From NCBI GenBank assembly GCA_964658305.1, contig OZ210885.1, positions 22,692,001-22,756,000 of the forward strand: a DNA stretch of 64,000 nt, written 5' to 3'. Shown piece after piece: positions 911 through 22,170 of this stretch. Source of the stretch: Leptogorgia sarmentosa (lineage: Eukaryota). The translations under genes were made by a program, and so were the position numbers. The notes under the pieces are model-generated. The model was not told the origin of the DNA. It did not search any database and saw only the letters and a program-made list of their open reading frames with translations. Positions within the stretch are counted from its first letter, which is position 1. Each line of letters starts with the position of its first letter.

Positions 911-2026
911 TAATTTCTGCATAATTGGATATTTGCATTAATTACCAATGCAAATTGAAGCTAATTCCCAAAGGTCCGTAATTACGCGAAGAAATTGCGG
1001 AAAATCCAGTTTTCGGACATCGCACATTCGTCTCGGCGTGCACCAAATTTCTCAAAACTTGAATAGCTTGTATATCGTACTCCATATTTTCATCCGATTA
1101 ATTCAAATTGTGTGAAGAAAATGTCCCAATTTCTCTTGATGTGCGAAACTCCGTAGTGTACCGATGTCCTTTCAATTTTTAAGCAAAAATTATCCAGTTG
1201 TAACGTTATACTATTGTTCATCATTGTTTGCAGCTATTCGTATGGATAAGAAATTTAACTGGGGAAGTAATGTAATCTAAGATGCCTCGAGTTATAGTAC
1301 ACAATGCCGCAAAGCCCCTCCGGAATTTGGATTTTTGCGAAAATTGCAACTCAGCACGTGTTCGTGGGATGAAATATTTGTGTAATACAATATGGCGGAC
1401 GCTAAGGAGTGCGACATTGAATCAGTAATGTGGCCAAGTTTCAACAATGTTTGAACATTTTGCCAAAGCGGTTAAAATGTTATTTGAATATCTGCAATCT
1501 AGAAAACAAGTATGGGTTGTCATGAACAAAAATGGCCATAGCCCATACTATCAACTGCTGCCGTGGATATTATAAATGTGCAAACATTTTTTAGTTTGCC
1601 GTCTTTGCCTTGAGGGTACACTTAATGCAGTAACACAGTAAACTCGTCGCAACAAGAAAACCATAATTTTAAATCTTATTTAGTTCATACGATTGATATA
1701 TAATGGTCGATATATTCGCTTCACACATTTATTTGAACGTGTTTGTTTCCATTTGTTCTCGCCATAGTCGTTTTATTATTATACTGTGAGGGTCAAGAGG
1801 GTCAGAGGTCAGAGATTCAACAAAATAATGTCGAGCACGCGAAATTTGAACGTGCGGATTTCCTTTTTTGGCTATAAAATCTTTTAAATTATTTTATTAT
1901 ACTACATCAAGCTTTTCTTTGAGCTGATGTTACATGGAATGATTTTTAACGGCAATTCAACAACACAACAGGGCCGAACAGGCCGCCAAGCGACATTAGC
2001 TTTAGCTCGATATCTTCGTAGAAACT

Positions 2027-4548
2027 TTGCACTATCCTTGGATTCCTAGTTCCTCTTCCTCCTCCAGTAGTGAGGATGAAGCTGGTCAAGTGTGCAAGAA
2101 AGTCTGCACGTCTGCTCCTGCTCCTCCGAGTCCGTCAAACGCTAGCATGTGGCCGGAGTTCCCGAGCCCTCCTACTCCAACTGCCACTCTTGAGGCCATG
2201 GAGGCTGACGTGGACAAGTGCTTGAGTGGTGATACGGTCGTGGACCCTATCGTCGCTCACGAATCTGCACCTGCTCTTGCCTCTACTGAGCCAGCCGGAT
2301 CCCCGGAGCGTATGGATGATGCTCCCGTGCCTTGTCAGGCTGATGTGGACGATGATAATGCTGCTTTGCAGGATCCTCCTGCAGTGGATGTCTCGTCCCA
2401 ACAGTCTGAGTCATCCCTTGATCTTTTCGAGGCACTGGCAGCCATCCATGAAGACTCACTGTCTCGTCTTTGCATGACGAGACTTTGCAACTCTACTCCC
2501 AAGCGTGCATCTTTGACATGCACGACTTTTAGTGATCAGCTTCGTGCTGATCAACTCGAGGAGCTCCTTCTTGGTGAACTGCCCACTTCTGGGACATCAG
2601 ATTCCGATGGTGAGTCTGATGTCCATTAACATCAACGGTCTTAACGACCGTGTTAAACGAACCGCCCTGGTGGATTGGTTAAAGTGTATGAAGGTGGATG
2701 GAACCTACGCACCCCGACTTGTCTGGAACAGTATATTAGGGAATGTGAATACCATCCCTCCTTATCGGATCATCAATACTTGCTGGTCAAGTTACAATTT
2801 GGTGATCGTATTGCTAGTGGTCCTGGAGTGTGGAAGTTTAATACTTCCCTCCTGGACGACAAAACCTATTGCGCCCTTGTCACTTCTTTTTGGTCCTTCT
2901 GGCAGGCCCATTATACACCTGAGGCCTTTCCCTCCATTTTGGATTGGTGGGACCAAGGGAAGTTCTACCTTTAGAGAAGTGACACGCAATTTTAGTCGGT
3001 CAAAGGAGCTGGACCGGCGTGAACATAAATCCTTTCTGACCAAGCAAATGCACAGACTGCAACGTCTTTTTGAAGCAGGGGATACCTCTGCATTCGCTAA
3101 GCTTTGTGAGGTACAGGAAGAGCTCCGAGGCATTGCTTTGCATGAAGCTAGAGGGGCACAAGTTCGTGCTCGCTGTCAGTGCGCTGAGGAGGGGGAAACT
3201 TCCTCCTCCTTTTTTCTCAATTTAGCCACTAAGCGACATGCAAAGCAGGAGATGCACTCCATTCGAGACCCTGACACCGGTTCCGTGCGCCACAACCCTT
3301 TTGAGATCTTAGACGTCTGGCGGCGGTATTACACCGGACTCTTTACTGCAGCACCCTGCGATACATCTGCTCAGGATGAGATGCTGTCAAAGCTGTCTCG
3401 TCGCCTTAGTAAGGAGGAACGTGCGTGTTGTGAGGGTCTTCTCTCTTTAGAGGAGTGCTTTACTGCCTTATCTGGTATGGCTAGAGGAAAGACTCCGGGT
3501 TCCGATGGCTTTCCCATGGAGTTTTACCTCAAGTTTTGCTCATGCCTTGGCGCTGATCTGGTTCGCGTCCTCAACGTTGCTTACGAGGCCGGCCAGCATT
3601 CCACCTCTCAGCTTCGAGGTCTGATCATAGTACTATACAAAAAGAATGACCGCTTGGAGACAAAGAACTGGCGGCCGATTAGTCTGCTCAATGCAGAGTA
3701 TAAAATAGCTACTCACGCTATTTCAGGTCGTCTCCTAGCCGTCATCGGGTCTGTTGTAGGGCCAGATTGGACATGCGGTGTTCCAGGCCGTACCATCTCA
3801 GAGAACCTCTTTCTGATCCGTGATCTAATTGAGTATGTGGAGCATGAGGACATCCCCCTCACTCTGCTCTCTTTGGATCAAGAAAAAGCATTTGATCGGG
3901 TCAATTGGGGTTTTCTTTTGCGGACTCTGGACACCATGAATTTTGGTCCGGATTTCTGCCGATGGGTAAAATTGTTTTACTCCGACGTTGAATCGGCTGT
4001 TGTTATTAATGGCTGGACCTTCTCCTTTTTTCGCCCTTCACGGGGTGTGCGGCAGGGTTGTCCACTTTCTCCACTATTGTACGTTCTGTCGATTGAGGTG
4101 TTAGCGGCTAACATCCGCTCTGCCCCAGGTATTACTGGTGTTTTTCTCCCTCAATCGCTGGAACAGTTTAAATGCTTTGGGTATGCCAACGATACGACGA
4201 TTGCTCCTACTATGGAAGAATCGATCGAGGCCACCTTCGAGGTATATTCTCAGTTTGAGAAAGCCTTGGGTGCTCGTCTGAATCGCGGCAAATCTAAGGG
4301 CATGTGGCTGGGCTCCTGGAAGCACCGTACCGATACCCCTCATGGTATCCAGTGGGTTAAAGAACTCCCATTACTTGGTGCAACCTTCAGTGCCGCTGAC
4401 TATAGTCAGCCGACCTTCGAGCCAGCCGTTTCCAAGTTGGAGAAACGTTTGTCAGACTGGTCTGGACGCAAACTGTCCTTTGAGGGCAAGGCCACAATTA
4501 TCAACACCTTGGCCTTGTCCCGGATATGGCACTTGTGTCACGTCCTTT
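2027..4548 (+). mobile_element. Degenerate Tx1/L1-clade LINE: ORF1 C-terminus (to 2629) and ORF2 from ATG 2607, with partly deleted APE endonuclease and an RT domain
   Basis: Motifs 'SININGLND', 'SDHQ', 'GPGVWKFNTSLL', 'EEGETSSSFF', 'KTPGSDG', 'WRPISLLN', 'LDQEKAFDRV', 'GVRQGCPLSP'. The catalytic YADD is mutated to YAND. Frameshifts present; homology stops abruptly at about 4548. Confidence 0.9.
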
Positions 4549-5025
4549 TAAAGAAAAAGAGCCAGGGAACGGATATGTTGGCCCACCGACCTCAATCCGC
4601 AACACGGAATGCAAAAAAAGAACCTAATAGACCACCGACCTTTGAGTTGTCCCCAAACAGACTCCTCGACAGGTCACACACAAGAAGAGCTATTACCCAC
4701 TAGCTAATAAAAACAATAAAAAACACTGTAATGGGCGGCCCTATGCTGTGTCGCGTGCTAACCGCGCAACAAACAGTAGGAAAGACTACCAATCGAGTTC
4801 CAAAGAACCAGAAAAGCAGTCCAAAAGAAAACGAATGGACTAACTGCTACCTTGACACCTATCCAAGTAGGCCGGCCAGACAGCGGGAAGACAGAACAAA
4901 GAAGAAGGCGTGTCTGCAAAAAGAACTGCAGCTAGTTGTAAACCTTGCGAGCAGAGTTACAGGTCCATGTTCCTGAGCATAGATCCTCTACTGCAAGGGT
5001 GAAGAACCTGACACGACAAAGACGG
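4549..5025 (-). mobile_element. Non-coding element with a Tx1-like 3'UTR, fused directly after U1 nt 17
   Basis: 4587-4636 resembles the 3'UTR of the Tx1 at 18617-18661 (cgacc(t)caatccg..aacc(t)aata..gaccacc). T-rich on the minus strand, no recognisable ORF, several stems. Confidence 0.55.
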
Positions 5026-5042
5026 TCGCGTCAGGTAAGTAT
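5026..5042 (-). ncRNA. U1: U1 snRNA 5' fragment (nt 1-17), disrupted gene copy
   Basis: Minus strand ATACTTACCTGACGCGA is identical to the U1 start at 17200-17184 and has the same upstream flank. Confidence 0.9.
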
Positions 5043-5478
5043 GACTTCATGGCGCATACAATTACCTTTTATACGCTGCAACCGTGAGGAATGCTTGTGG
5101 AATGAATGCATGGGGATGAGTTTGTCTGTCGATAGATGGATCGATTGATCTCTCGGACTGCACCGTGTTTGCACATTCCGACAATTCTCGACCCGCATAT
5201 TCAATATGAGTTTACAAAAAATTCCATGAATGTAAATCTCATGAACAGCGATGCTGTTTTGTTGGCCAACGAGCTACGCAAGACTATTATAACATGAATG
5301 TGTTAGGCTGCTCACCATGCAAGTATAAATTCGTGGTCGGTCATCCGCAATGAATGCGTCATATATACGTATTTCCTGCCAAATCGCGATGATCAATCTG
5401 TAAGGGCAAGAATAATTTGTTAGAGTTTTGAACTGATAGTGAGTGAGAAATTTTCCCCCAATAATGAAATTGGGGAAA
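5043..5478 (-). repeat. U2-to-U1 intergenic spacer of the snRNA array, containing the presumptive U1 promoter
   Basis: Highly similar to 17201-18114 once the insertion at about 17536-17979 is removed. Lies between a U2 3' end and a U1 start in both copies. Confidence 0.85.
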
Positions 5479-5650
5479 GTGGGCCGTACTCAGCGGTAGT
5501 GCAATACCGAGACAAAAATCCGATGGCCAAGGCGAAGCAAGCTTCAATCCTATGGCCGAGGTCCAAAAATCAGTTTAATTATATGAGTTAGGACATTGCC
5601 TAACATATCAGATATTAAGCTGATAAGAACAGATACTACCCTTGATCTTA
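5479..5650 (-). ncRNA. U2: U2 snRNA gene from nt 22 to the 3' end, 5' end displaced by a retroelement
   Basis: Minus strand TAAGATCAAG(G)GTAGTATCTGTTCTTATCAGCTTAATATCTGATA, Sm site GATTTTTGG, stem-loop IV with ATTGCAC loop. Confidence 0.95.
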
Positions 5651-7250
5651 TTTTGTTTAATAAATCGTTTTAACTATTTACAAAAGGCGTAACGTGCAAT
5701 GCCTGTAAGTCAAAGCTCTGGAAAGATCATGCTCGTCTAGTCCAGCTAGTGATACAAGTCTGGCTTGAAGCCCACAAAACTAAAAAACAAGTGCTCGGCA
5801 CCTGCTAGTCCTCATAACTAATGTAAGTTCTGTCCAGAATCGCACCAAAAATGGCTTCGCGAGTCTCATCGTTCAATCCTCGTATACACTCTGGGTGGGT
5901 AGAAGCAAAGAATACCTCGTAAGCGGCTAAGGTATCCGGTGGCAGGTTATCAATTGGGGCTTTCGCATCCGGCAGGGTTTCGGGAAAGTCCTTGTACTTG
6001 CTCCGGGCCTCCATGTATGTGCGCACGAGATTGTAACGGCTGTATGGAATATCGGTTGTCGTGGTACCAGGGGGAAGAACCGGTGTCAGGAGAGCGGAGG
6101 AAGACAAATCCACACAGTCACTGGGCCACTGGAGGGAACGAAGGTCTGCCACGGCCTGCTCATCCAGTTGGAGAGCTTTTTGCCAGGTGGGATGACGCAA
6201 CGATAGAGTTTTCTCATACTTTGGCCGTAACTCCGAAGGAATGCGGCGATACACAGCTGTAAACTGTTCATGATCAGCTGCAGTTGCTTTGGCACCCAAA
6301 ACATCATCCCGGACACATTCACGTTCGTAGACCTCATAAGGAGGAATATCCGTTCGATCCTTCTTTGAAGGATTTACAACATCGGAACCCGGAAACTGTC
6401 GCTTGCCAGTATCAGGGTTAACAGGTGTCGACGTCGAGGAAACATCATCCATTTGGAGATCAACCACAGAAGAATCACTTGCAGGAGATTCAGGTGACGG
6501 GGGATCAACCAATACGGAGCGAGGGTTGACATCAACAGCCGCGGGGCGCTTTTCAGAAGCTACAGCCGACGTCTGAACTGCCGGCTCACCAACAATGCGG
6601 GACGTAGGGGCTCCACTGGTCTTCTTGAAGGGGCTGTTTCGCGAGATATTACCGGTCTGCTCACATCGAAAGCATTGCTGCACTTGGCCACGGTAGAATA
6701 CGTTCACTGGATAGTTAGCAATGGTAAGACGTGAAGGAATCGGTTTGCGTATCTCCATTTTGACCAAGTATACTGATATACCGATGCCATGTACCAGTTC
6801 TCGACGTATCTTCAAGACGTCACCATAATCGGACAACCGAGACTTAATGGCATTTTCTGTGGTGCCATACATCACACAGTTTAATTTGATCCATTGGGTG
6901 TTGGGCGCCGGGACCAATTTGACAGGATGGGAGCGGAAGGTAAGACCAGAGTGCAGTAAAGCTTCAGCCTGGCGACTATCGGAACAATGCATCACGAACG
7001 TGGATGCATCAGATTGCATAACATTCTCAATTTTTTTGTTGAGGCGTGGGGGACTTGGCGAAGGAAGTCGGAGAGCATTTCCTTCAGAGTAACAGGAGTC
7101 GTTGCCGCAGTTTCCATAACGGCGTCAGGAATCGTGCCCACCAGGGCTCTTGCGGCGAAAGGGATAGCAGCCATATGACCGAAGACCACCAAAAGCGAGC
7201 AGGAACACGAAACTGCTCGCGACGCACGCGTGTTCTCCACGAATTTCTGG
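5651..7250 (-). mobile_element. ORF1-only (HAL1-like) Tx1-type retroelement with its 3' end joined to U2 nt 22; 5' boundary approximate
   Basis: One gag-like ORF, then about 155 nt of 3'UTR ending ATTAAACAAAA|TAAGATCAAG. No EN or RT sequence. Confidence 0.75.
5805..7174 (-). pseudogene. Tx1-type ORF1 (RRM-like region plus CCHC knuckle), one frameshift near 7030
   Basis: ATG at 7174 (MAAIPFAARALVG), shifting into ORF 7019-5805 with 'LSDYGDVLKIRRE', 'KPIPSRLTIANYPVNVFYRGQVQQCFRCEQTGNISRNSP' (decayed CX2CX4HX4C). Confidence 0.8.
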
Positions 7251-7702
7251 CGATTTTTTGGCAGGCGCACGTGGCGCTTTTCCCCGACCTACCTTGGTTC
7301 GCGACCGATTTGCGAATGGCAAATGACCAACATGCATTGAGTTGAACGAAGCGCGTCCGGTTGCGCTTCGGTTGGAGAAATGACGAGTGCATTTGAATTG
7401 GAAATGGTTGTTTAACATAAGTCTAGTATAAAATGCATGATCGGTTGGCAGCGCGTGTATCGATTGACTCATTCATTCATTCCGTGTGACGTGCCTACAA
7501 CAAGGTGTGAGTAATCCAATATTGATTGCATGGTTATGTATTAGTTTCGAATGACCGCGATGTAGTATCGAGTTACATGTGCGGCCTGCAGTGTGAAGAG
7601 CACATAGAATTGTTGTCCCTTCAATAAACTAGGATGCCGACCCGACGACATTTGTAATATCAGTTTTGAGTATTGGAAGTGAGAATAATAAGATGAGGAT
7701 AA

Positions 7703-7842
7703 AGGGGACGAGTGCGAACGCAGGTCCCCACTACCAGAAATTATACGTTCGAGTTACCCACATTAGGGGTAATCGCAGGAGTCAACCCAGTCGAAGTGCA
7801 ATGAAAGGGCCTCATCCTGAGAGGACCTCCTAGTTGATCAAG
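7703..7842 (-). ncRNA. U1: U1 snRNA 3' portion (nt 25-164 including the TSD copy), split by the MULE
   Basis: Minus strand has the SLII loop CATTGCACTTCG, SLIII, Sm site AATTTCTGG and SLIV GGGGACCTGCGTTCGCACTCGTCCCC. Joined to 17200-17167 it gives a U1 of about 164 nt. Confidence 0.95.
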
Positions 7843-8095
7843 GGTTGTGGTTAAAGGGGATGGACGAGAGGTAGGTGACCGTGTGAGGTCTGGGTCTAGT
7901 TGCGTGTTTGCTTCGTGTTCGTGGTACACGCGAGAACAGATTACTTTAGGAAAATTTGGAATTTTCCAAACATTCTCGCAGTTCAGATATTAATATAAAA
8001 TAAAGATGATTTTTCGGTAAATTCGTATCAGCAACAGCAGCTACAGCAATTTATAGTACTTTATGGAGACGCGGAAAGGTATATAATTATAATAT

Positions 8096-8780
8096 TAAGG
8101 ACTTATTAACCGAGTGTGAGGTCTGTACGGGAAAGTATTGCCTGAGGGTTTTCGTACAGACCGAGCGACGAAAGAGCGAGGTCTGTGCGTTAAAAACAGA
8201 AGGCAATACTTTCCCGTACAGACAGAGCAAATGAGGTTAATAAGGGATTTATTATATGGCTTTGTTCGATCACAATTTGTTCTGACATTGTAGAAAGAAC
8301 TAGAAAACACTTTCGATGCTAAAACGTTCAGCCGTATACACTGGCCTACTGAATGGCGGTTTCTGGCCGTTCACTGCTGTACAACAACAAAACAATAAAA
8401 ATACAACAAAGGAAAAAATTGAATAAAAAAATACAATGTAAATGTCGCGATAAACAACAAATGTTCGATGCGAAATGAAGCCATTAAGTGCTGCGAAAAC
8501 AATGTTCGCAACAGTTTTCGAACTGTTGTTTTGTTTGCCGTTATTTTCACTTTAAAACTCAGCATTTTGGATCGTGTGTTTTTCTGGGACAGCAAAATTC
8601 AATCGGGGATTGTTCTTCAACGTCACCGTACGGCATAATAAGATTTAGTTTCCTTAAAAATTTTATTTGTATAATAGTTTCACGAGCGGGCAAGATGACT
8701 TTCCTGAGCGGGCAAGATGACTTTTTCCGGACCGCTAATCAACCAATCAGCGTGCGGCATTTATGTCAGCCATATAATAA
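8096..8780. mobile_element. Non-autonomous element with a palindrome at one end (8096-8250), family uncertain
   Basis: Inverted arms gtctgtacgggaaagtattgcct / aggcaatactttcccgtacagac. Ends cagccatataataa. Flanked by the direct repeat TATAATAT at 8088-8095 and 8781-8788. Confidence 0.65.
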
Positions 8781-11278
8781 TATAATATATAAATGTATAT
8801 AATATGAACTTTATTATCGCTACGTGTATTTAAATTACAAAGCTGTTAGCCTGTTATGAGATTATGAAAGACTTGATTCTGATTGCAACATTTTGTTCAA
8901 TTAATGTATGTGGGAACATTGTGAGCACTTTGTTTTGAAGGCACTCATGCAAATGACTTCTCATTTGTGACTGGTCAAACATCACATTCTTTAAACAAAT
9001 CCCTTTTGCTAAGGCAAGAGCATTTGCAATTGCAAAAAGACCACAATCATTTTTTCCTTTCTGGTTCTGACACATATATGCCTTCACCCTAACTGGTTGA
9101 AGCCCATCTTTGTTCTGGCCATAAACGTGTAGGAGTTGACAAGCAAGCTTTGAAGAAATTGATGGCTCCATTGAGTCATACACTGTTATTCCTCCATTAG
9201 ATGCACTTGATACAACCCAGTGCATGTTGCCAGAATGGTGTATTTGGATACTTGTACCACACTCTGATGTTATTGGAAGAGATTTTCTACTGGCCACTTG
9301 TAATGAATTTGCTAAACCCTCTACATTTGGGAACTGTTGGCGTATAAGATCTTGTGCAGAGTTCATGATACTGTCATTTAGCCATGCATGACTGCTTTGT
9401 AATATCTTCTCGTCTTCCTTGTGTAGCCCTAGTGAGGAAACCCACAATGCATCACTACTGGATTTTTCTGCACTGCTGCCTTGATTTGTTAAGTCAATTA
9501 TGTTTTTTGATGGTTTTGTTGTGGATGAACTTGCAGGAATTTTTTTTATAGGAACATTTACTCTGTATTGCTTCCTCATAATTTCTGCATGACGCCCAAC
9601 TCGTTTGGCGAATGGATGACAAGGTTTACCATATCTTCTTTCAGGGAGGCAATCTTTAACATCTTTTTTCACTTTCTTAGCTTTTTTTGACATCTTCATA
9701 TTTTCCTCTCCCTTCATTGTAGATACTGCTAACTTTCTTTTCTTTCCCTTTTTCTGACAATCTTCATGTTCCAAAACAATGCCATCATCTGATTTCACCA
9801 GTTGTTCAGTTTCTTGAAACATCTGTTGAAGTTGACCTTCAAGTTTCTCAAGGCTTGGCACATCCTTCAGCAAATAAGTCAGTCCGTTCAACTTCTTTAA
9901 AATAACTCTACATTTAGCCTGCATGAGTTTTCTGGTTGTTTTTCTTCTCGGTGGAAGATCTTGTGTCTTACCATGATTGTTCAAATCTTTTTCAGCTTCA
10001 ATTGCACTTTCTGTGGTTGTACTAGTTGTGGTAATTTCTGATGCCAAGCTGGATTGCTTGAAGTGAAGAATAACAAAATACAAATTAGAATGTACTATTC
10101 TTCTATACTACTCTTCTGAATCCATTGACTGTTGGGTATGGTATAGGTTTGAAGTTCAATGCCATCTTAGATTTTTTGCCAGATGATTTGTAACTGACAG
10201 AAATAGAACATTATAATTAATTAAAGGGACAAGCTGATACCATTTTGTTCTAATAAGTGTGCTTGTAGTTTGTAAAGGAGTGCTGATATTACAAAACAAT
10301 GTACACTAACTGCATGAGAGCAAGGAAATTAAATTAAATCTGTAGCTGCCTTTTATTGACAGTTACTTTCAAAGACAATGCTGCAGTACTATAAACAAGT
10401 TTTAATAAAAATTACTCTCACTCTGATAATTACAGGTCAATGATATTCCTCTGTATTACATTGTAAATGCTGTTCATGCACAACTTACCTGTTCTTGTTC
10501 CTGATAATTGTCTGGGCAGTCTCCGGGTTTGGTTTAGACAGACCTCATCTAAATTTAATATGGAGAGGCTTTTGTACAGCGGACTCAAATCATTCCATCT
10601 TTGTTCTGTATTTTTGAAGACAGCACAAAAATGTTTGCACAGAAGCTTGGTTTTGTTCCAGTCTGCACACTGGCAACTTGGATGGCTTGATTCATCTCCA
10701 AAACTAACAGTGTACCACTTGCTGGGGGTTGTTGTACTCTGAACAGAGTATTTTCCTTCTCCCATTTTTCTGATATTCTCGCTTGTGTACCAGCAATCTT
10801 TCCATCTTTTCAAAACATGGGCTACAACAAATCTTGGTCTGTTCTTCAAAAACTCTGGAATATCTTCGTTGTACTTTCGATAGCCTGACGAATACTGGAC
10901 GTTCAATGAGACATATCTGTGAACAATGGTGGTGAATTTTAATTAGGAGATCTGATTAGAAGGACAGGGCTTGTCCTTTGTATGTTTTTCTAGTAGTTGC
11001 ACGGCTAAAGCCTTAGATCCTTTAAAACTGTTATAAAGATTTCCACAACGATGATTATGAATATGCACTTACTTCAAATAAGAGTCAGGCAGAAAGTTTT
11101 CAATGACGACATTCAGCATTTCACTCAGAGAGCAATTTTTGTAGCCAAGCAGATATTCATACTTTAATGCTTCGTTCTGACGCTCTACTCCATTATTTGT
11201 GTGGACTGCTATCTCCATGTCTTCGATACGGAATGCTTGTACCCATCTCTAAAGAATGCAAAATAGACGTCGAACGAA

Positions 11279-11384
11279 TTCAGACGTCGAACTTTCCATG
11301 CGCCGAACCTTATGTTAATGAGCTAAGTTCTTTGTTTGAGCTCATTTGCATTAGGTTCGGCACATGAAAAGTTCGACATCTGAA
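11279..11384. mobile_element. Small palindromic MITE in a MULE intron
   Basis: Inverted arms ttcagacgtcgaactttccatgcgccgaacct / aggttcggcacatgaaaagttcgacatctgaa. Confidence 0.7.
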
Positions 11385-11434
11385 CTAGGCTCTAGGCTTC
11401 AAAAGCTGCTGCATCAAGTAAATTGGAGAGTAAC

Positions 11435-12677
11435 CAGGGGCGGATCCAGGGTTAGACATGACCGGTTTGTAGGGGGGTCCGGGGGTATCCTCCCCCGGAA
11501 AATTTTTGAAAATTAGTGCTCTAAAACAGCATTTCCTGCTTTTTGGGGGGACTAGTTTGACAATATCAGCGATATGAAAATGCACCTTTTTAATACAATG
11601 CTCTGCCATTAAAATATTTGATCCGGTAGCGAGGCATGAATGATAATTGGTACGACACCACAGAATATAATTTAGTGCTCTTTGACGCATCGATATTAGT
11701 TATCAATAGAACAAGTACAGCTAGCTTCAATATAGACATAGTTGGCATTTCAGATCGACAGTTCTACATGTTATCAAACCAAATTTAAAATGAACAAACA
11801 GCTGAACAAAATTGTATTTAAGCTGGAAGGACTGCTTAGTCAGAATCACGCATTTCCTAATGCGATGTCGCCAACGCAATGACACAACAATCAAACAAAT
11901 CTATACAAATCTATGTGCATTTTTCGCGCTATAAGTACACTTACATATTAGGTCACAAGAAACGTTGACGCATCGATGTATGTTATGCTCATAGAACAGA
12001 TAAACACAATTATTTAATATATAATTTTAAACAAACCTTTAAAAGAAACAAGAACCCATGTAAATGCACAAAAGCTTTCATATAAACCATTTCCTCATTC
12101 ATAGTTGCCAACACAAATATTCTGCCACGCAAAATTATAAACATATTTCGCGCGTCCTCGAGTTCTGTTAACCCTCTTACCCAGTTTTTTTTCAGACTGC
12201 TCGATTCACAGGTTTATGACCGGTTTACATCCGCCGATGCGCTGCCGTTTAGCCAATCAAAAGGCGTAGCGACCGGTTTATTCTCATTAGGAAAACTCTG
12301 ACCACCGGTTTACACACAACTGCAGGCGTCTATATGACTATATTTGTTTCAGGTCGCGTTTACTGACCACAACCCACAACGATATATCAGCACTTGCTAC
12401 AACTACAGTATTTCGTAAGCGGAAACAAATGCGATAATCTTCAAGTGGGGTTGTACGTCAATAATTTAAAATCGCAAGGTCATATAAATGATGTAATCCA
12501 TGATCAAATTTCATGCTGCATTTAAATAGCATACGTAGTAAGTTATATATCACACTTTTTGTGAAAGAAATTGTCCTCAATTAAGGCCAAAAACAATATA
12601 ATAATTCAGAATTCTCTTTCTCTGGAAAATCTGACAGGTTTACATAAACCTGTTAAACCTGTCTGAATCCACCCCTG
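11435..12677. mobile_element. Non-autonomous hAT-type element with a 6-bp TSD
   Basis: Termini CAGGGGCGGATCCAG and CTGAATCCACCCCTG. Direct repeat AGTAAC at 11429-11434 and 12678-12683. Internal accggtt repeats. Confidence 0.75.
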
Positions 12678-15600
12678 AGTAACCGTAAATTCTTCGAAAC
12701 TTTTTTCGAATTGGGAGAAAGTTGAATATAGCTTTTACAGTCAATATAATATTACACAGCAGTGTAATAGCCTTCAACCCACTAGTCACAACCTTATTCT
12801 GCGCACATCATTATTATCCTTGCATATTTTTTTAGAAGACAAATTCATTTTGTATGAACAGGCATACAAAAAACCATCGATTTAGAAATATTTACCTTTG
12901 CACTTGGTAACCACTTTCCTTCTTGCCATCTTTGAAGTTTTAAGGACGATTTCCATATCGTACTTTCTTTCATAATTTTCACAGCGTCTTCAAACTGTTG
13001 TATTGTGGTTGAGTGAGCAATAGAGCAAAGGTAGCGCAGAATCTCATCTCTATCCTGACTTACACCATGGTCAGATTTGCTGATCGATTCACTCCAAGCT
13101 TTCTCTTGATGGAAGTCGCACAAAAAAACAGTGCTTTCTACAATGAATATTTTATATTTTGTTGTGACTAGGATTTTATTGATAATGCTACATGATAATG
13201 ATTCCCGTTCATGGCTCACAATTCCCGCCCATTTTTTCATGCAGACGCAATGTTAATGTCCGAGATCATGTTTTTTCATTGTACTGTATGTTAGGACTCC
13301 AAACAGTTCAACATGTTGTAAATGTGTCCATGTGAATAAGCATTGTTAGCAGTAAAGTGCATTAAAAAATATTCACTATAAAAAATGTATTCAATATTAT
13401 TGTAATTATGTTTAGAAATGTTTTAATGTGATTTCTTTAGAAATTGACCACACTAAACTTACCAGGAAATATAGATTCAATAGCCTGTATCTCCGCATCT
13501 GCAAAATCCACCATAAAGTTCTTTGGTTTCCACTCAGGGTTCCATTTTCGAAATATTTCTAGTGCTTCTTTGATACTTTCAATGTCTTCTTGTTGAATGA
13601 CGAAGAGACCAACAACTTGGTAACAAACATTAGTCTTTACACAAAGAAAAGAGGGGAAGTGCGTATCTTGTTGTTCGATAAGTGGCGTCAAGGAGGCACA
13701 TGTTTCCATATCTTGCAAGTAGACGGCGTTGTTCCTTAGATTGGTAACAAAACAGCAGATTTTTGTGGTGAATAGGAAATGTCATGGGCTTAATATTATC
13801 AATGTCTTCCTCAATGTTATCATCGCCCACCTCAGAAATGGAGGTATCTGAAGGTGTTGTGGCATCATTGGCATCATGAGTATGAGCTCTAAAGAAGAAC
13901 ATGTCGTCTGGTTTTTGTATTTTCCATGTAGTAACCAAGTGTTGAAGGTAATCTTGGTCGATATGAGTGAAACGTTTTTCTCTTTTAATTTTGCTGATTT
14001 CGTTTTTGATATCCTGCTTTCTAGGAAAATATCTTCTTCTTGTTCTGGGTGGAATAGCCTGGTGTTTGAAGAGGTCGTTTTACGTACTGTTCCAGGTATC
14101 TTTTCACATCACTTACTCTTCTAACACTCATCCCAATAAGTTCTGCTATTTTCTCTTTCAGAGCAGGATCTATTGACTCGCAAATACCTGCTGCCTGTAA
14201 GAGAATTTAGAAAAACGTAATTTTGATATACAAATACATGTATCGTGAATCACTAGCAATATTAATAAATGTATGCCTTGTGCAAGTTTATAGTAGGTTT
14301 TCATGTTGGTGGGGTAGCACATTTCGCTATAACTGTTCTATAAATAGTGCTCCACTAATCAATTCATTCTTTAGATTTCCTTCTTTTCACAAGTTTATGT
14401 GTCATGTTGATTTTGCACAGAGGTATAAGCAAAGTTGCCCTTTAGCTGAGAAACGGAACAACGACAATAAATAGGCAGATGTCTTTATAATTACCTCTCC
14501 AACTATGTGATTAGCATGCTCATTTGGCCCTGGCAATTTGATGTAAAATCTTGACTCCGGTTTAGCATTGCCCTCCTTAATAGATTCCCGCAAAATTTTA
14601 GAGCTTTGCTTCCGCAACCATGCTGTGTTACGTAGAACCTGTAACATACAAGTTATCAAGATTCTCTTATAGGTATAAAAATTAACACACGATGACGAAA
14701 CTGAGCCATTACAAGAGTCTAGTAATGGCAACCAGTTACACGATGAGGAACATTATAATGTATAGGAATAGCTCTTTTCTAATAAACATCAATTTTTGTT
14801 GTAATTTTTCATAAGAAATGACGAATTCGAATTAAACTATGGAATTTTTTTAATGTCATTATGGCTTACTTAATTTGAACAGAGAGGGACATAGCCTGAA
14901 ACTCTATCGTGATGGAGTCGATCAAGAAATGATCAGAAAAGTTGGCAAACTATTCGATTAAAAGATCTTTTTCTTTCTGTATAATTAGATATCATTACAT
15001 ATTTACCGTCATAAAACTGTACACTTTATATTCTCATAGTCATAGACGCTTTCTTACCTTATTCTCTGGAAACTTTAAAACATGCTTGATGGAGATAGTT
15101 GCTGGACAATCCTTCTTCTCTGTATTTTGTACGTGAAATCGTTTCTTGAAAGTCTTGTCGTAGCTGTGCTCTACAAACTGAATTTCGAAACACATACCAT
15201 ATTTAGCAAACATGAAAATTACTTTGAAAATTAAATGGATATACTTCATTCATTTCATACCTGGCTACTATCTGATTTTGACCTATTCGCTGCCTTTTCA
15301 GCTTTATGTTTGTCCTTTCCCTGATGACACCAATATATTTTCTCTCCATTCATGATAAAAGGAACTCCGTCAAATGGCAAGCTATGCTTGGTTCCGTTCG
15401 GTGACTCCCAACAAACGTTCTTGTTTGTTAAAATAGCATCTTCAATTAAAGTGCGAATGATAACTAAATTATATGATATAATAATGTGCATACCTCTTGT
15501 ATTACTAAAGCATGCATTGCTGCTGTAGACAACAAAGCGACTCATCGTTGCTTTTTCATACTCGTGTATTACTTGGTCGATCTCGTCAAGTGAACTCACA

Positions 15601-15860
15601 TATCCTTCCTTGTCTGAAAACCAAACTCCTCATCGACTACTATCCAGCAATTGCAGTTCCGCCATATTTTAATAAATTAAATTTCCCGCCAAATCAAGTC
15701 TACACGCGGGCTCACGATTGCAACTTTGAAATTCTTGAATTTGTAGGCTTTGCCGTTCGGATTAGTCGGTTTAAAGCGTATTTTCTTGTAAGTGGTTAAA
15801 ATGTCTTAAGGCCCGTTACATACGTCGAATTTTCTTCGCATCGAATACAGTCACGATTTA

Positions 15861-16044
15861 AGGGCTGTATTATTTTTAGAATTTATGAAATAGGGTTAAT
15901 TAGAATTAGCATGAGAGTTGGAATAAAGTTAGGACATGGTGTGAGGTTAGGATTACGGTTAAGATTAGGGTTAGCAATTTGAGTTAAGGTTAGCATTTTG
16001 GTTAGGATTATAAGACAAAAAGTCTGAAAATAGAAACAACCCCC
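15861..16044. repeat. MITE-like repeat with a degenerate (TTAGGG)-like interior
   Basis: Loose inverted ends gggctgtattatttttaga / tctgaaaatagaaacaacccc around ttagg and ttagc units. Confidence 0.45.
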
Positions 16045-17166
16045 AGAACGTGAAAGGTGTGGTTGCAGAACACAGTTTCTCCAAACCTCTCAAATGCTCA
16101 TTTGTTTGCTGGAGAGAGGGCGAGGTTAATAGATTCCTACAAGAAACCCATTCCCTCTGCCATGCATTCTCTAAGGTGTGTGTGTGTTGTGCTCAAAACT
16201 GGTAACTTTATTTTATATAAATTACACTTTTTCCAGAAAAGTACTAGTTGGTCAGTTTTTCCTGTTCACTATCCCTTGCTTGGAACTTAATCGAATTGGA
16301 ACTTCATGATAGTATTATAAGTCAAAAAAGTGAGATAGATCCTGCTTGTGCTGGGACGGATAGCCTGGTTCAGTATTCTACCAATGGCCTTATAACACAG
16401 AGAGTAGGCAATGCCTCTATGCATCTTTGATAGCTATTTTGCTCCAAACAAAAAAAGTTTTAAATTTCAATTACAGGGAATTAGACTAAGTTCTAAAAAT
16501 AATTTATGCAGTATATATGTGTTGATGTACAGAATCTGAATTGTGTACAAACACTTTTATGCCACACATCAATAACATTAGTGGAAAGGGATCAGATTTT
16601 TTGCACAAGTGGCTAATTGCTAAATAATATATGTCAACCTGTATCTCATACTGCTGTGTGTGTAAATCCAAGGGATTGTTTCCTTTGACATGTTTTTATA
16701 ATTTAATAAATGTGAATGATGAGAAGGTGGGCATTGGAATATAATTATCTGGGATCAAGTGCTGCTCCCTTGGAATATATCATTTTTCAAGGTAATTTTT
16801 TGAGGGATATTCTGGTTGGTAACTGATAAATAATTACATTGAAAGTTTAAGTTTTGTTTAATCTTTGCTGGCTAGAAGCCTGAGCAATTTTCAATTTCAA
16901 GCAGGCCAGGCTGGAGGGTAATTTTTAAGGTAGAAGGTCAAGTCAAGAAGAATATAAAGTGATTATCTCTTGAATATTGCTCAGTCAAAAACCACTAATT
17001 TGAGTGAAAAATCTGAACTGCGAAAATGTTTGGAAAATTCCAAATTTTGATTAATTTTCCTAAAGTAATCTGTTCTCGCGTGTACCACGAACACGAAGAA
17101 AACATGCAACTAGACCCAGACCTCACACAGTCACCCACCTCTCGTCCATCCCCTTTAACCACAACC

Positions 17167-17200
17167 GTTGATCAAGGTGCCTCTCGCGTCAGGTAAGTAT
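17167..17200 (-). ncRNA. U1: U1 snRNA 5' portion (nt 1-34)
   Basis: Minus strand ATACTTACCTGACGCGAGAGGCACCTTGATCAAC: the 5' splice-site-pairing sequence and the SLI 5' arm and loop. Confidence 0.95.
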
Positions 17201-17535
17201 GACTTCATGGTGCATATGATTACCTTTTATACGCTGCAACCGCGAGGAATGCTTGTGGAACGAATGCATGGGGATGAGTTTGTCGTCTGTCGATAGATGG
17301 ATCGATCGATCTCTCGGACTGCACCGTGTTTGCACGTTCCGACAATTCTCAACCCGCAAATTCAATACGAGTATACTAAAAATTCCATGAATGTAAATCT
17401 CGTGAACAGCGATGCTGCTTTGTTGGCCAACGAGCTACCCAAGACTATTATAACATGAATGTGTTAGGCTGTTTACCACCATGCAAGTATAATTCGTGGT
17501 CGCTCATCCGCACTGAATACGTCATATATACATAC

Positions 17536-17979
17536 ATATTATACCTCAAATTCAAATTGTCCAATGAAAACACAGCATTTGTACCACGTGATAGTGTGAT
17601 TTCTTACGGTATTTCACTCAAATTCATGATTTTGCAATCCAGCGTGGGATACTATAATATCCCCTGGCAGATACACCGTGGGATATTATAGTATCCCACG
17701 CTCACGCGTGGGCAACACGCGCCTAGCATAGCTAATTAGCTATGCAAAATGGCAGGCGAGCAAGACTCGGACGAAGAAATAAATAGACTTCTTGAAAACA
17801 ATGATGCAAAAATGTTTTGTTCGGTATAATATATCATTTATAGACCCTCCGCTCGGGGGATTCGGCGCAATATTTCCCTCAGTAATGATATTTTCCTCGG
17901 GGCAAAGCCCCTCGGAAAATATCATCACTTCGTGAAATATTACGCCGAATCCCCCTCGCTCCGGGTCTATAAATGATAA
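17536..17979. mobile_element. Non-autonomous element with a terminal palindrome, inserted in the U2-U1 spacer
   Basis: Absent from the other spacer copy (empty site near 5370). Palindrome of about 145 bp at 17831-17978 (tatcatttatagacc...ggtctataaatgata). Confidence 0.8.
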
Positions 17980-18114
17980 GTATCTCCTGCCAAATAAATG
18001 CCGGATCGCGGCGATGATCTACTACATTTACTGATGTAAAGGCAAGAATAATTTGTTAGAATTTTGAACTGATAGTGGGTGAGAAATCTTCCCCCAATAA
18101 TGAAATTGGGGGAA

Positions 18115-18281
18115 GTGGGCCGTACTCGGAGGTAGTGCAATACCGAGACAACCCATGGCCAGGGCGAAGCAAGCTTCAATCCCATGGCCGAGGTCCAAAA
18201 ATCAGTTTAATATATGAGTTAGGACATTGCCTAACATATCAGATATTAAGCTGATAAGAACAGATACTACACTTGATCTTA
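18115..18281 (-). ncRNA. U2: U2 snRNA gene from nt 22 to the 3' end, disrupted by a Tx1 LINE
   Basis: Minus strand TAAGATCAAGTGTAGTATCTGTTCTTATCAG with intact GTAGTA branch-point pairing sequence, Sm site and SLIII/IV. Confidence 0.95.
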
Positions 18282-21200
18282 TTTTGAGTTGAATGACGAC
18301 GGGCTTGTCGACTCCGACGGTGCAATGGAACCTGGACCCAAACAAGTCGCCGCACCCAGGGGGTCACTACAGGTGACGCGGATCGACGGGTCGTGAGCCC
18401 CTCCCCCGCGCCACGATGCAACCGTGAGTGGCCTGAACGATCCGGTGCTATCCACCTTCACGCCCAGGAATCCCTAACCTAATGATGATGAAATGGTCAG
18501 ATGATGATGTTAAACTAGACGATTACAACATGAGCAGCAACCCCTAGATCAAAACCTGTGCAACCCACTCGGAACAAGTCCAAGGGAACCACAGGGCAAA
18601 AATTGAAACAAACAGACGACCCAATCCGATACAGGCAGTACAACCAATAAAGGCGACCACCAGATCTTCATGGGAGGACAAAGCGAACCAACATTAAAGA
18701 TAAAAACAAATGTGCTGTCCAGTCCAAAGACAACTATAAGAAAACAAACACGTCCAGAAGGCGACGACAGTACAACCACTGAAGGCGACCGTCATGCCCC
18801 TAGACCACACTATTTAAGAGAAAAGGGAGGAGAGAAAGGAGGAAGGAAGAGAAGAGAATCAAGTGATGAAATCACGTGTGAATCTGATCCAGTCCTGCTC
18901 TGTTAGCGTGCCTATAAGTCCGTCTGCCAGCCACTCACAAACAAACCGGTGCCGAGGGCAGTGGTGCTTGTGCATACGCACCAGAAAGCGGAAGGTGGTC
19001 TTAGCTTTCTTCAAAGTGGTGGTGACATCTGGGTTGACATGATCAAACCGACAGGTGTTGCGGTTAAGCCAGATGTGGTGACGGAGCACCCCAATCAGAG
19101 CGGAGAAAACACTGAACACCTCGCAGTGTGCAGCGAACCCAAACAGAATTTGATCTGTCGGCAACGCAGGAGCGGACAGACAAAATTTTAGGTACTGGCC
19201 ACGAAACCAAGACCAGAGAGAGACAGAGAACGGACAACTTGTAAAGAGGTGTAAAAGTGTTTCCTGTTCCCCACAGAAACACAACTCGCATACCAAAGCG
19301 GACCAGTCTGTTAGCTGTTGGTAATATGCCATGGAAATTCAACCAGGCCGTATCCTGAACCGACCGGACAAACCGCCAAAGGTGAAGGCTCGCCCACGCT
19401 GCTTGCCACGGTACATTGATGCCCCAGTTGCGATACTTAGCGACGGAACGGTGCTCGGTAGTCGAAGAGCGGCGAAGAAGGGAGTATGCCGTACTGGCAG
19501 TTAGCTCTTCAAAGGGAAGTAATTGCCCTGAAGGACGAGGGACAACCCATACGCCCTGATCGTTTTGGCCATGCAGAGTGACCCACGCGGAAAGTACACC
19601 CCTATAACATAGGGGAAGTTTTTTAATTAAATAGGCTGGAATCGGACCCGAGCCAAAACGTCAGCAACCGACTGACCAAACACTAGCTCAATATGGTGGG
19701 GAAAAAAGCAGGACCATGGGTGCATGTGGTTAGCAAAAAAGCGACGGAGCCAAACGGCACGAATGGACAAGATCTTATTTGAGATGTCTACAATGTTAAA
19801 CCCACCGTCTCCGATGGGCTGGACCACGGATGTACGTGCCATCCATTCGCGCTTTTTTCCCCAAACAAATGGAAAAATTATTTTATTGATTTAAGCTATG
19901 GTCATTTTTGGCAGGTAAAAAATTGTTGCTTGGTACCAGAAGAGCGACAGCCCCAAGGTATTTACAATAAGCGCTCGGCCCCTAAAAGACAACTGACGCT
20001 GTTTCCATATCGACAATTGCTGTTCTAAATTCGCTACCAAAGTGTCCCAGTCGGCAGATTCGACATTGGCAATCCGACACCCCAACACAGTTATGGCGTC
20101 ACTGGACCAATTGAGCTGTACGGGTAGGTCAACTCTATTCTTCCAAGATCCAAAAAGAAGACCATGATATATATAGCTTTTAGCTATATTCAATTTGCAC
20201 CTGACGCTCGTTCATATTTTTCAAAAAGGGAAAAGAGCGACTGCAGGGCCTGCTCGGAGCGAACAATAATTGAAGTGTCGTCGGCATACTGAAAAATTGA
20301 TGGTCTCTCCATTGAACATTTGGAAACCGTCAATATTGAGGTCCTTTTTTATTGCACACGAAATGGTTTCCGCCACAATTATATATAGCAAGGGAGAAAG
20401 AGGACACCCTTGACGAACGCCGCGAGTATTACCACATTACAAAACCATTAACAAAGATGCGAGAAAAAATGTTGGTGTACAGGAGTTTGACCCATGCACA
20501 AAAGGACGGACCAAAATGCATCTTTTCCAAAGTGCGTAACATAAACCCCCAGTCAACTCGATCAAAGGCCTTCTCTTGATCTAATGATATTATGGCACCA
20601 CCAGTATTGTGGCGATTGCAAAAATTGACTACATCTTGTAATGCCCTGATGTTCAGCCCGGAAAACTGTCCAGGAACACCACAAGCTTGAGATTCTGAGA
20701 TAACAGAAGATAGCACTACTTTAAGGCGATTGGTAAGTACCTTAGATAAAATTTTATAATCTGTGCATAAAAGGGAAATGGGCCGCCAATTCTTGACATC
20801 CAAGCGGTCATTTTTCTTAAAGAGGAGGGAGATTAACCCAGTTCGCTGTGAAAAAGAAAGGGCACCTTGTGCCATGCAATCATTATATACTGCAACTAGA
20901 TCAGGTCCCAAAATGTCCCAGAAGGATTGGTAAAACTCGTATGACAAACGATCAAGACCCGGAGACTTATTGCGCTTGAAGGAATTCAATGCTCGCTGGC
21001 ATTCAGTTAATGTGACCTCTCCTTCACAAAGCTGGGCTTCTTGAGAAGAAAGAGATTTATCTAAACTATTGATGAAAAACGACTCATCCGGGTGAGATAA
21101 AAGAGATGATGAAAAAAGTTGAACATAAAAAAGGCACCAAATTTGTAAAATCGCAGAAACAGATCTTACTATAGTACCGCGTGCATCGCGAATGCCTGTA

Positions 21201-21324
21201 AATAAACGGCGTGATGCCCTCGCTTTCTCCTGTCGGAAGAAAAAGGCAGAAGAAGTTTCACCTTCCTCGGCCCACTGCTCCTTGCCTCGAATGCGCGCAC
21301 CTTCCGCTGCATAGAGATGTTCTA
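18282..21324 (-). mobile_element. Tx1-clade LINE (ORF2 RT, CCHC finger and about 580-nt 3'UTR) with its 3' end at U2 nt 22; 5' part lost at the Tc1-like insertion
   Basis: Motifs 'WAEEGETSSAFF', 'KSPGLD', 'WRPISLLCTDYKI', 'LDQEKAFDRV', QYADDT near 20285, 'CFCGEQETLLHLFTSCP'. Stop at 18859. Ends TCAACTCAAAA|TAAGATCAAG. Frameshifted. Confidence 0.92.
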
Positions 21325-22170
21325 CAGGGTGTATAAAAAAAAAGTTTACTGATGAAAAACATTCTCTAAACTAACGAGCGCTCAAAATTTCCAAAAACGT
21401 TCGGTTAGCATAGGTAGTTTAACACCCTCTGGTATATCTAGCACTGAGTTTATTTTAAAAACAAACTTTTTTAGATTGGGAAATGTGGTTACTGAAAGGC
21501 CCATTAAAAACGGCTTGCACGGAAAAAATAAGTTTTCTTCACGCAATTTGATTTAATCGGTTGAAAATCCTCCTCCACATCATGACTATGGATAACAGCT
21601 GGTTAAACAGAACAAAAAAAAATCGCACTAGTCTAAATCTAATTTAATTTCTGATACTGCAAATACCAACGAAAAATTTGTTGGCTCAAGCGGGATTTGA
21701 ACTCCCAGCTTCGGGTTTCTAGAATCTAGACTATCTATCTGTCTAAGTCGTTAAAGCTTGTCTTGGAGGGCAACGCAATGTTTCAAATTCATTCTATCAT
21801 CCTCAGCGATATGAAAAGCTGATTTCATTTATAATCTCATTTTAATGAACAAAAGTGAGAGTTTAAATCCCACCACAATAACTTTGATTTTATCAACTGT
21901 GTTAAAAAACAGACAAACATAATTACCATCATGGTGATCATTGACCTCTTCCTCCAGTATTGCAACGTTGCTGATTATACTTGATTCTATAATTAAATAA
22001 TTTTAAAACCCATTTCATTTTCATAGACGAAGGTCAAAATTCAAATCACACAAACTGACAAACATAATTACCATCATGGTGATCATTGACCTCACCCTCA
22101 TCAATTGCAGTGTTGTTGCCTGGATTTGATTCTATAATTAAACATTTTAAAACCAATTAGACAACAAGGT

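Follow-up and report, generated by a model that had tools for sequence, protein, structure and literature searches.

Two Tx1-type retroelements join U2 snRNA genes at the same nucleotide in a decayed U1-U2 array of Leptogorgia sarmentosa

The window analyzed here, a 64,000-nt stretch of Leptogorgia sarmentosa DNA (contig OZ210885.1, positions 22,692,001-22,756,000), contains a decayed tandem array of U1 and U2 small nuclear RNA (snRNA) genes, in which the U2 genes are array units. Rfam identified two U2 genes and one U1 gene, all on the minus strand. Both U2 genes lack their 5' end and are joined there to the A tail of a retroelement, named A and B in what follows. The features that bear on these junctions are listed below in window positions, with nucleotide abbreviated as nt, open reading frame as ORF, untranslated region as UTR, reverse transcriptase as RT and long interspersed nuclear element as LINE.

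5474..5650, minus strand: U2 snRNA remnant 1, nt 22 to the end (Rfam RF00004, 106.5 bits; nt 22-192 by BLAST against native U2)
5651..7207, minus strand: element A, an ORF1-only (HAL1-like) Tx1 derivative with a 33-nt 5' UTR, ORF1, a 154-nt 3' UTR and AAAA at U2 nt 22
5694..5700, minus strand: AUUGCAC motif in the tail of element A, predicted 12-nt loop closed by C-G on a 4-bp stem
5805..7174, minus strand: ORF1 of A (tblastn, two frames, 57-59% to protein P0121; start placed by blastx)
18110..18281, minus strand: U2 snRNA remnant 2, nt 22 to the end (Rfam, 142.9 bits; BLAST against native U2)
18282..21324, minus strand: element B, a Tx1-type LINE without ORF1 and endonuclease, with a 577-nt 3' UTR and AAAA at U2 nt 22
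18320..18326, minus strand: AUUGCAC motif in the tail of element B, which could sit in an 11-nt loop on a six-pair stem, though the minimum-energy fold differs
21322-18859, minus strand: broken ORF2 of B (RT, zf-RVT; frameshifts)

An earlier sequence-only reading of this DNA had placed the junctions at 5650/5651 and 18281/18282 at one U2 position, nt 21/22, and this position stands: both remnants match native U2 from nt 22, and CAAAA precedes each of them in place of native U2 nt 17-21. The same reading had not found U2 nt 1-21 on the 5' side of either remnant; these nucleotides are absent from the entire window, where the best matches (16/21 and 15/21) both lie far from the array. U2 as cargo of the elements was considered and rejected, because both remnants run through native spacer into U1, and U2 is therefore the genomic target. 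That the element tails do not align was confirmed by shuffling, since 75 of 500 shuffles score as high for the last 154 nt of the two tails and 63 of 500 align as well for the whole 3' UTRs. An alignment of a further piece (D) with A or B was rejected because it did not exceed shuffles. The description of the tails as unrelated is too strong, as they have an ATTGCAC motif in common and ORF1 of A is homologous to the ORF1-like part of a protein from the RT clade of B. A and B are better read as one system than as unrelated elements.

Element A was also considered as a truncated LINE, which was rejected: it is an ORF1-only element in which ORF1 is followed directly by a 3' UTR and an A tail (stop at 5805, junction at 5651), so that the stop codon lies 154 nt from the junction. 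A Pfam search of A gave no match. A is 57% identical to predicted proteins, some of which carry a CCHC knuckle (PF00098). In the window copy, ORF1 carries a single frameshift within an A-run (near 7030-7040) and a decayed CCHC knuckle, which marks this copy as inactive. Ten of the 32 listed differences were scored for purifying selection, five of them synonymous and five not. Full-length homologs have 32-57% identity. The contigs that carry 11 of 32 homologs are just 1.6-1.9 kb long, as would suit a family that encodes ORF1 only, although collapsed assemblies could also break there. From residue 47 of A on, where the comparison is valid, ORF1 is 33% identical (E 3e-19) to the N-terminal part of P0043, which belongs to the clade of B; an A-like N-terminus is present in that clade, and ORF1 itself has been lost from B. 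As HAL1 (half-L1) is described in the available part of PMC5753468, it shares with A that it is non-autonomous and encodes only ORF1p. HAL1 derives from mammalian L1, whereas A has a cnidarian Tx1-type ORF1 at a specific site.

Contigs from four of 17 listed public sequencing runs (X1, X2, X4 and X6) were compared with element A and the spacer. A contig of X6 with a diverged A tail, carrying several substitutions and indels, has a 38-nt loose end made up of a different 15-nt tail followed by U2 from nt 22, so that the base used in the window is joined a third time. The tail variant reaches a depth of 840 in X1 and 438 in X2, compared with about 110 and 86 for the copy in the window, where run depth does not equal copy number. 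An allele of A was rejected as its source: the variant and the window's own copy coexist in X1, X2 and X6, and their presence together in a single run makes the variant a paralog. X4 and X6 contain pieces identical to the window's copy, so X6 does not come from a distant species. The run contigs include diverged variants of A as well as one form with an internal deletion, which shows that A is a multi-copy family and not a one-off deletion. The internally deleted form (6138 joined to 7128), present at high depth in X1, X2 and X4, may represent a short non-autonomous family. Depth is also high in all four runs over 7208-7695, and this stretch extends 217 nt or more past 7208, where the window switches to A. 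It is probably the native U1-to-U2 spacer, but it could also be a dispersed repeat; if it is native spacer, the insertion of A or a later event removed the U2 promoter together with nt 1-21.

The known U2-specific families had been expected to insert further downstream, which would make nt 21/22 a different target site, and the available parts of the published descriptions agree on both points. Utopia 3' flanks start at U2 nt 39, identical to those of Keno, and only Keno and Utopia are listed for U2 in the accessible portion of PMC4640811. The Keno flank starts with TCTGTTC in the excerpt available from PMC6136364, and Keno, a U2-specific family of the Tx1 clade, includes Tx1-1_HM of hydra and Tx1-5_BF of lancelet according to the part of PMC4494074 at hand. 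In contrast to this flank start, all three junctions of B, A and the X6 variant (3/3) lie at nt 22, 17 nt upstream. Keno otherwise resembles the present system in being a Tx1-type LINE with an apurinic/apyrimidinic (AP)-like endonuclease (seen here in the relatives of B) that occupies U2 genes in sense orientation and also occurs in cnidarians. Utopia, as far as the available text of PMC4640811 goes, shares the U2 target, U2 arrays with several families and the frequent absence of the 5' U2 fragment upstream; it differs in its restriction-like endonuclease, its clade and its flank from nt 39. The relatives of B have an AP-like endonuclease and an L1-type RT, in contrast to the restriction-like endonuclease and NeSL-related RT that define Utopia. 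No U2 nt-22 or U1-start Tx1 was found in the literature searched; the original Keno description and Repbase, which were outside this search, may describe the nt-22 site.

Genome contigs were searched as well, with 13 loci as the result. Animal-like DNA within a single metagenome-assembled genome (MAG), G001, accounts for 11 of these; it contains a U2-U1-5S array with many Tx1 elements that serves here as the comparator array. This animal array in a bacterial MAG is spread over contigs C5, C46, C57, C68 and C71 (L006-L015, L018-L020, L025-L028), and the MAGs G001, G002 and G003 all carry much animal host DNA in the form of snRNA arrays and LINEs. All four A-tailed 3' junctions in U2 of G001 are at the Keno site and none is at nt 22. 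Another eleven junctions (nine distinct tails) are found at U1 nt 2/3, with 5' junctions at U1 nt 12-19; these U1-start families show 10-17 nt duplications, tandem insertions and short non-autonomous forms. One comparator Tx1 (L016, about 9400-9670) ends 5 nt before a tRNA gene and has two ATTGCAC motifs, one of them in an 11-pair hairpin. The U1-start elements share with A and B an snRNA array target, a short A tail and AUUGCAC 26-50 nt before the junction, but differ in their U1-start target, their duplications and their separate RT clade. Neither B-clade elements nor motif-plus-junction matches (0/3) were found in G001-G003.

Both window tails contain ATTGCAC in their last 70 nt, at -50 in A (shuffle p 0.0105) and at -45 in B (p 0.004). 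In the same interval the motif occurs in 7/9 U1-start tails of the comparator array, the other two having one mismatch, and in the single tRNA-adjacent tail (1/1). Several U1-start tails are close kin, so these counts overstate independence; the count excludes two U1 tails that were duplicates and a 10-mer that matched by chance. In contrast, none of the four Keno-site tails (0/4) has the motif; three of four carry AATAAA, with poly(A) runs of 6-14. Stems of 5-11 pairs close the motif loop in 9/10 comparator tails. An AUUGCAC loop closed by C-G is the ligand of the U1A/SNF proteins (U1A, U2B'' and SNF) in U1 stem-loop II and U2 stem-loop IV, as stated in the available part of PMC5992148. The window tails could form the same loop closed by C-G, although their predicted loops of 11-12 nt, compared with 10 in U1, would stand on weak stems. 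A literature search for AUUGCAC together with retrotransposons found no paper.

Element B has the RT and zf-RVT combination of Tx1 (PF00078, E 1e-15; PF13966, E 0.0018, under its cut-off). Among named RT homologs, those of Paramuricea (62%) and Stylophora (46%) come closest, and one named homolog is annotated as 'Transposon TX1 149 kDa protein' (46%). Trees were built with FastTree (64 rows) and IQ-TREE (36 rows, 475 columns) after thinning database rows by identity and leaving out two duplicate elements; the Keno-site rows are stand-ins from the comparator array, not Repbase Keno. B falls in a 14-row clade (support 100/98) apart from the U1-start and Keno-site elements, with P0161 as its nearest relative (78%). 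The U1-start elements form another RT group (100/99), and the branch that separates both groups from the Keno-site elements has support 81/88. RT identity of B is 38-40% to the Keno-site stand-ins, which also differ in their AATAAA, longer poly(A) and lack of AUUGCAC, and 43-45% to the U1-start rows. The AP-like endonucleases of the B clade keep their catalytic motifs and have an 8-residue insert and a GCNPxSPWAYNWP segment without counterpart in the other groups. The suggestion of a separate Tx1 lineage is thus upheld as far as the distinct RT clade and the third junction go, whereas a position of B outside every Keno-containing clade is not established (approximately unbiased, AU, test p 0.052).

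In other assemblies, eight A-like ORF1s and four B-like ORF2s are found on contigs of equal size (650,706 nt), and 9/14 members of one B-like cluster are likewise on contigs of one equal size. Such apparent co-location of A-like and B-like proteins fits a clustered common target.

We consider it probable, with appreciable room for doubt, that a distinct Tx1 lineage targets U2 nt 22 and carries A as a HAL1-like passenger. The AP-like endonuclease of this lineage would nick the bottom strand opposite the U2 C21/T22 step, and the freed 3'-OH would prime reverse transcription at the short A tail of the element. Target-primed reverse transcription is established for this element class. Each insertion would destroy one of many U2 copies, a loss that the array may tolerate. 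A must borrow its machinery because it has neither RT nor endonuclease, and the shared site, motif and co-location suggest that it is mobilized in trans, most simply by the lineage of B. The AUUGCAC loop common to both tails would serve as a 3' handle. Because this loop copies the U1A/SNF binding loop, a host snRNP (small nuclear ribonucleoprotein) protein may bind it and, more speculatively, could stand in for polyadenylation driven by AAUAAA or guide the RNA to snRNA loci. A wider proposal can be offered only tentatively, namely that nt 21/22 is a third independent U2 specificity, in an anthozoan Tx1 with an ORF1-only passenger, within a larger group of small-RNA-gene-targeting Tx1 elements whose RNA ends in a U1A/SNF-loop mimic instead of a poly(A) signal and which use a host snRNP protein for 3'-end handling or locus finding.

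The alternative that fares best, though still unlikely, is a locus-level preference, in which snRNA arrays or small-RNA promoters in general attract the elements, nt 21/22 is merely one of several sites that nick easily, and many copies lie elsewhere. Targets do vary among relatives in the sister group (U1 nt 2/3, and a position 5 nt ahead of a tRNA), the clade of B is diverse, and the metagenome scan produced no further junction. However, all three junctions share the same base and orientation, without scatter. Somewhat less credible is a Keno-related element with an altered stagger or a captured target, which would recognize nt 38/39 and duplicate U2 nt 22-38 or carry it at its 3' end. The 17-nt offset is within the range of the 10-20 nt duplications of the U1-start elements and of reptile Utopia (available part of PMC4640811), the AU value leaves room for a Keno relationship, and there is no 5' junction to exclude it. 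Against this, two non-aligning tails would each need the identical 17-nt capture, and the Keno-site elements differ in tail build, are further away in RT and lack the endonuclease inserts.

We regard as improbable a single old insertion at nt 21/22 that was duplicated with the array unit, after which deletions or fresh insertions exchanged its element part. In its favor, the two U2 units resemble each other at 92-94%, the last five tail bases are common to A and B, and the region is heavily rearranged. But A and B each reach the junction with their own complete 3' end (stop, UTR and motif), such an exchange would have to hit this base again, and the tail in X6 has a different end and still joins U2 at that base. 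Chance can practically be set aside: U2 nt 21-26 resembles the L1 cut site (consensus presumably TT/AAAA), where two non-specific insertions might use an AA-rich nick, but all three junctions keep T22, one base off an L1-type cut, and two independent same-orientation junctions would meet at one base of a 192-nt gene with a chance of about 1 in 384, lower for three.

Several observations weigh against a distinct nt-22 lineage with its passenger. The junctions number three in all, from the window and X6, and a single insertion, multiplied along with the array, may have given rise to both A and its X6 relative. Neither element shows an intact 5' junction or a target duplication, as the 5' part of B is gone and A borders at its 5' end on presumed spacer, 217 nt or more upstream of U2. 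A tree that joins the clade of B with the Keno-site rows is, at the AU value given above, borderline and not rejected. The endonuclease compared is that of P0161, which is 78% identical to B, since B has lost its own, and the co-location of A-like and B-like proteins is deduced from equal contig size alone. Neither window tail folds better than its shuffles (z 0.67 and -0.13), and the minimum-energy fold of B pairs the motif. Finally, when metagenomes were scanned for U2 genes with a non-native base ahead of nt 22, four loci came up, none of which (0/4) had an A tail or a Tx1, in a collection that may not include the contigs of the JGI (Joint Genome Institute) proteins known for both the A and B lineages. 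Two of these loci have a one-base U2 variant and two have other upstream sequence without an A tail. Non-native sequence right before U2 nt 22 without an A tail was noted in the non-cnidarian loci L002 and L005, which are probably a variant 5' end and a fragment. Among viral contigs, a scan with the U2 core gave one locus, with a native 5' end, and searches for A- and B-type proteins gave none; in two samples of 401 prokaryote genomes each, only the centre genome was returned.

On the minus strand, the array reads B, U2 nt 22 to the end, spacer, U1 nt 1-34, a MULE-type transposon, the rest of U1 and the presumed spacer, followed by A, U2 nt 22 to the end, spacer, U1 nt 1-16 and rearranged Tx1 pieces. 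The remaining array features are:

5027..5042, minus strand: U1 snRNA nt 1-16, broken off
5043..5473, minus strand: U2-to-U1 spacer, copy 1
7208..7702, minus strand: high-depth stretch after U1, likely native U1-to-U2 spacer
7703..7842, minus strand: 3' part of U1 snRNA, beginning with a 10-bp target duplication
7843..17166, minus strand: MULE-type DNA transposon inside U1, with SWIM and MULE domains, terminal inverted repeats (TIRs) of ~120 nt and a 10-bp target duplication
17167..17200, minus strand: U1 snRNA nt 1-34
17201..18109, minus strand: U2-to-U1 spacer with later insertions, homologous to 5043-5473

Tandem linkage of U1, U2 and 5S has been reported in Acropora (available part of PMC8167085); 5S rRNA was looked for in the window spacers and none was found. 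The 9.3-kb MULE at 7843-17166 is a single copy with a protease-like ORF, and its duplication corresponds to U1 nt 25-34. The second U1 (5027-5042) breaks after nt 16, like the 5' junctions of the U1-start Tx1 elements in G001. Next to it, 2006-5026 holds a UTR-like piece and then an opposite-strand Tx1 that is 65% identical to a G002 element and near the U1-start group. Palindromic insertions at 17832-17978 and 17535-18030 occur in the U2-to-U1 spacer of one unit only. At 21325-21568 another repeat cuts B off at TA, and 161 nt of it recur at 4-164 of the window; its end resembles what we take to be a Tc1/mariner TIR. The interval 22906-60000 is dense with decayed DNA transposons and virus-like or Helitron-like ORFs, including Harbinger-type DDE, hAT, MULE, DEAD-box helicase with DUF6589, PIF1 helicase, UCH, PHD and integrase core domains.

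With a second U2 site 17 nt from the known one, there is more than a single route by which the U2 gene can be targeted. AP-like endonucleases that are related but differ in target (U2 nt 22, U2 nt 39, the U1 start and a tRNA gene) provide material on specificity switching. The sequence around U2 nt 22 is identical in amoeba, oomycete and animal U2, and an enzyme that cuts there would therefore be a candidate for site-specific gene insertion. The ORF1-only passenger at a fixed site and the predicted 3' mimic of the U1A loop are both open to direct test.

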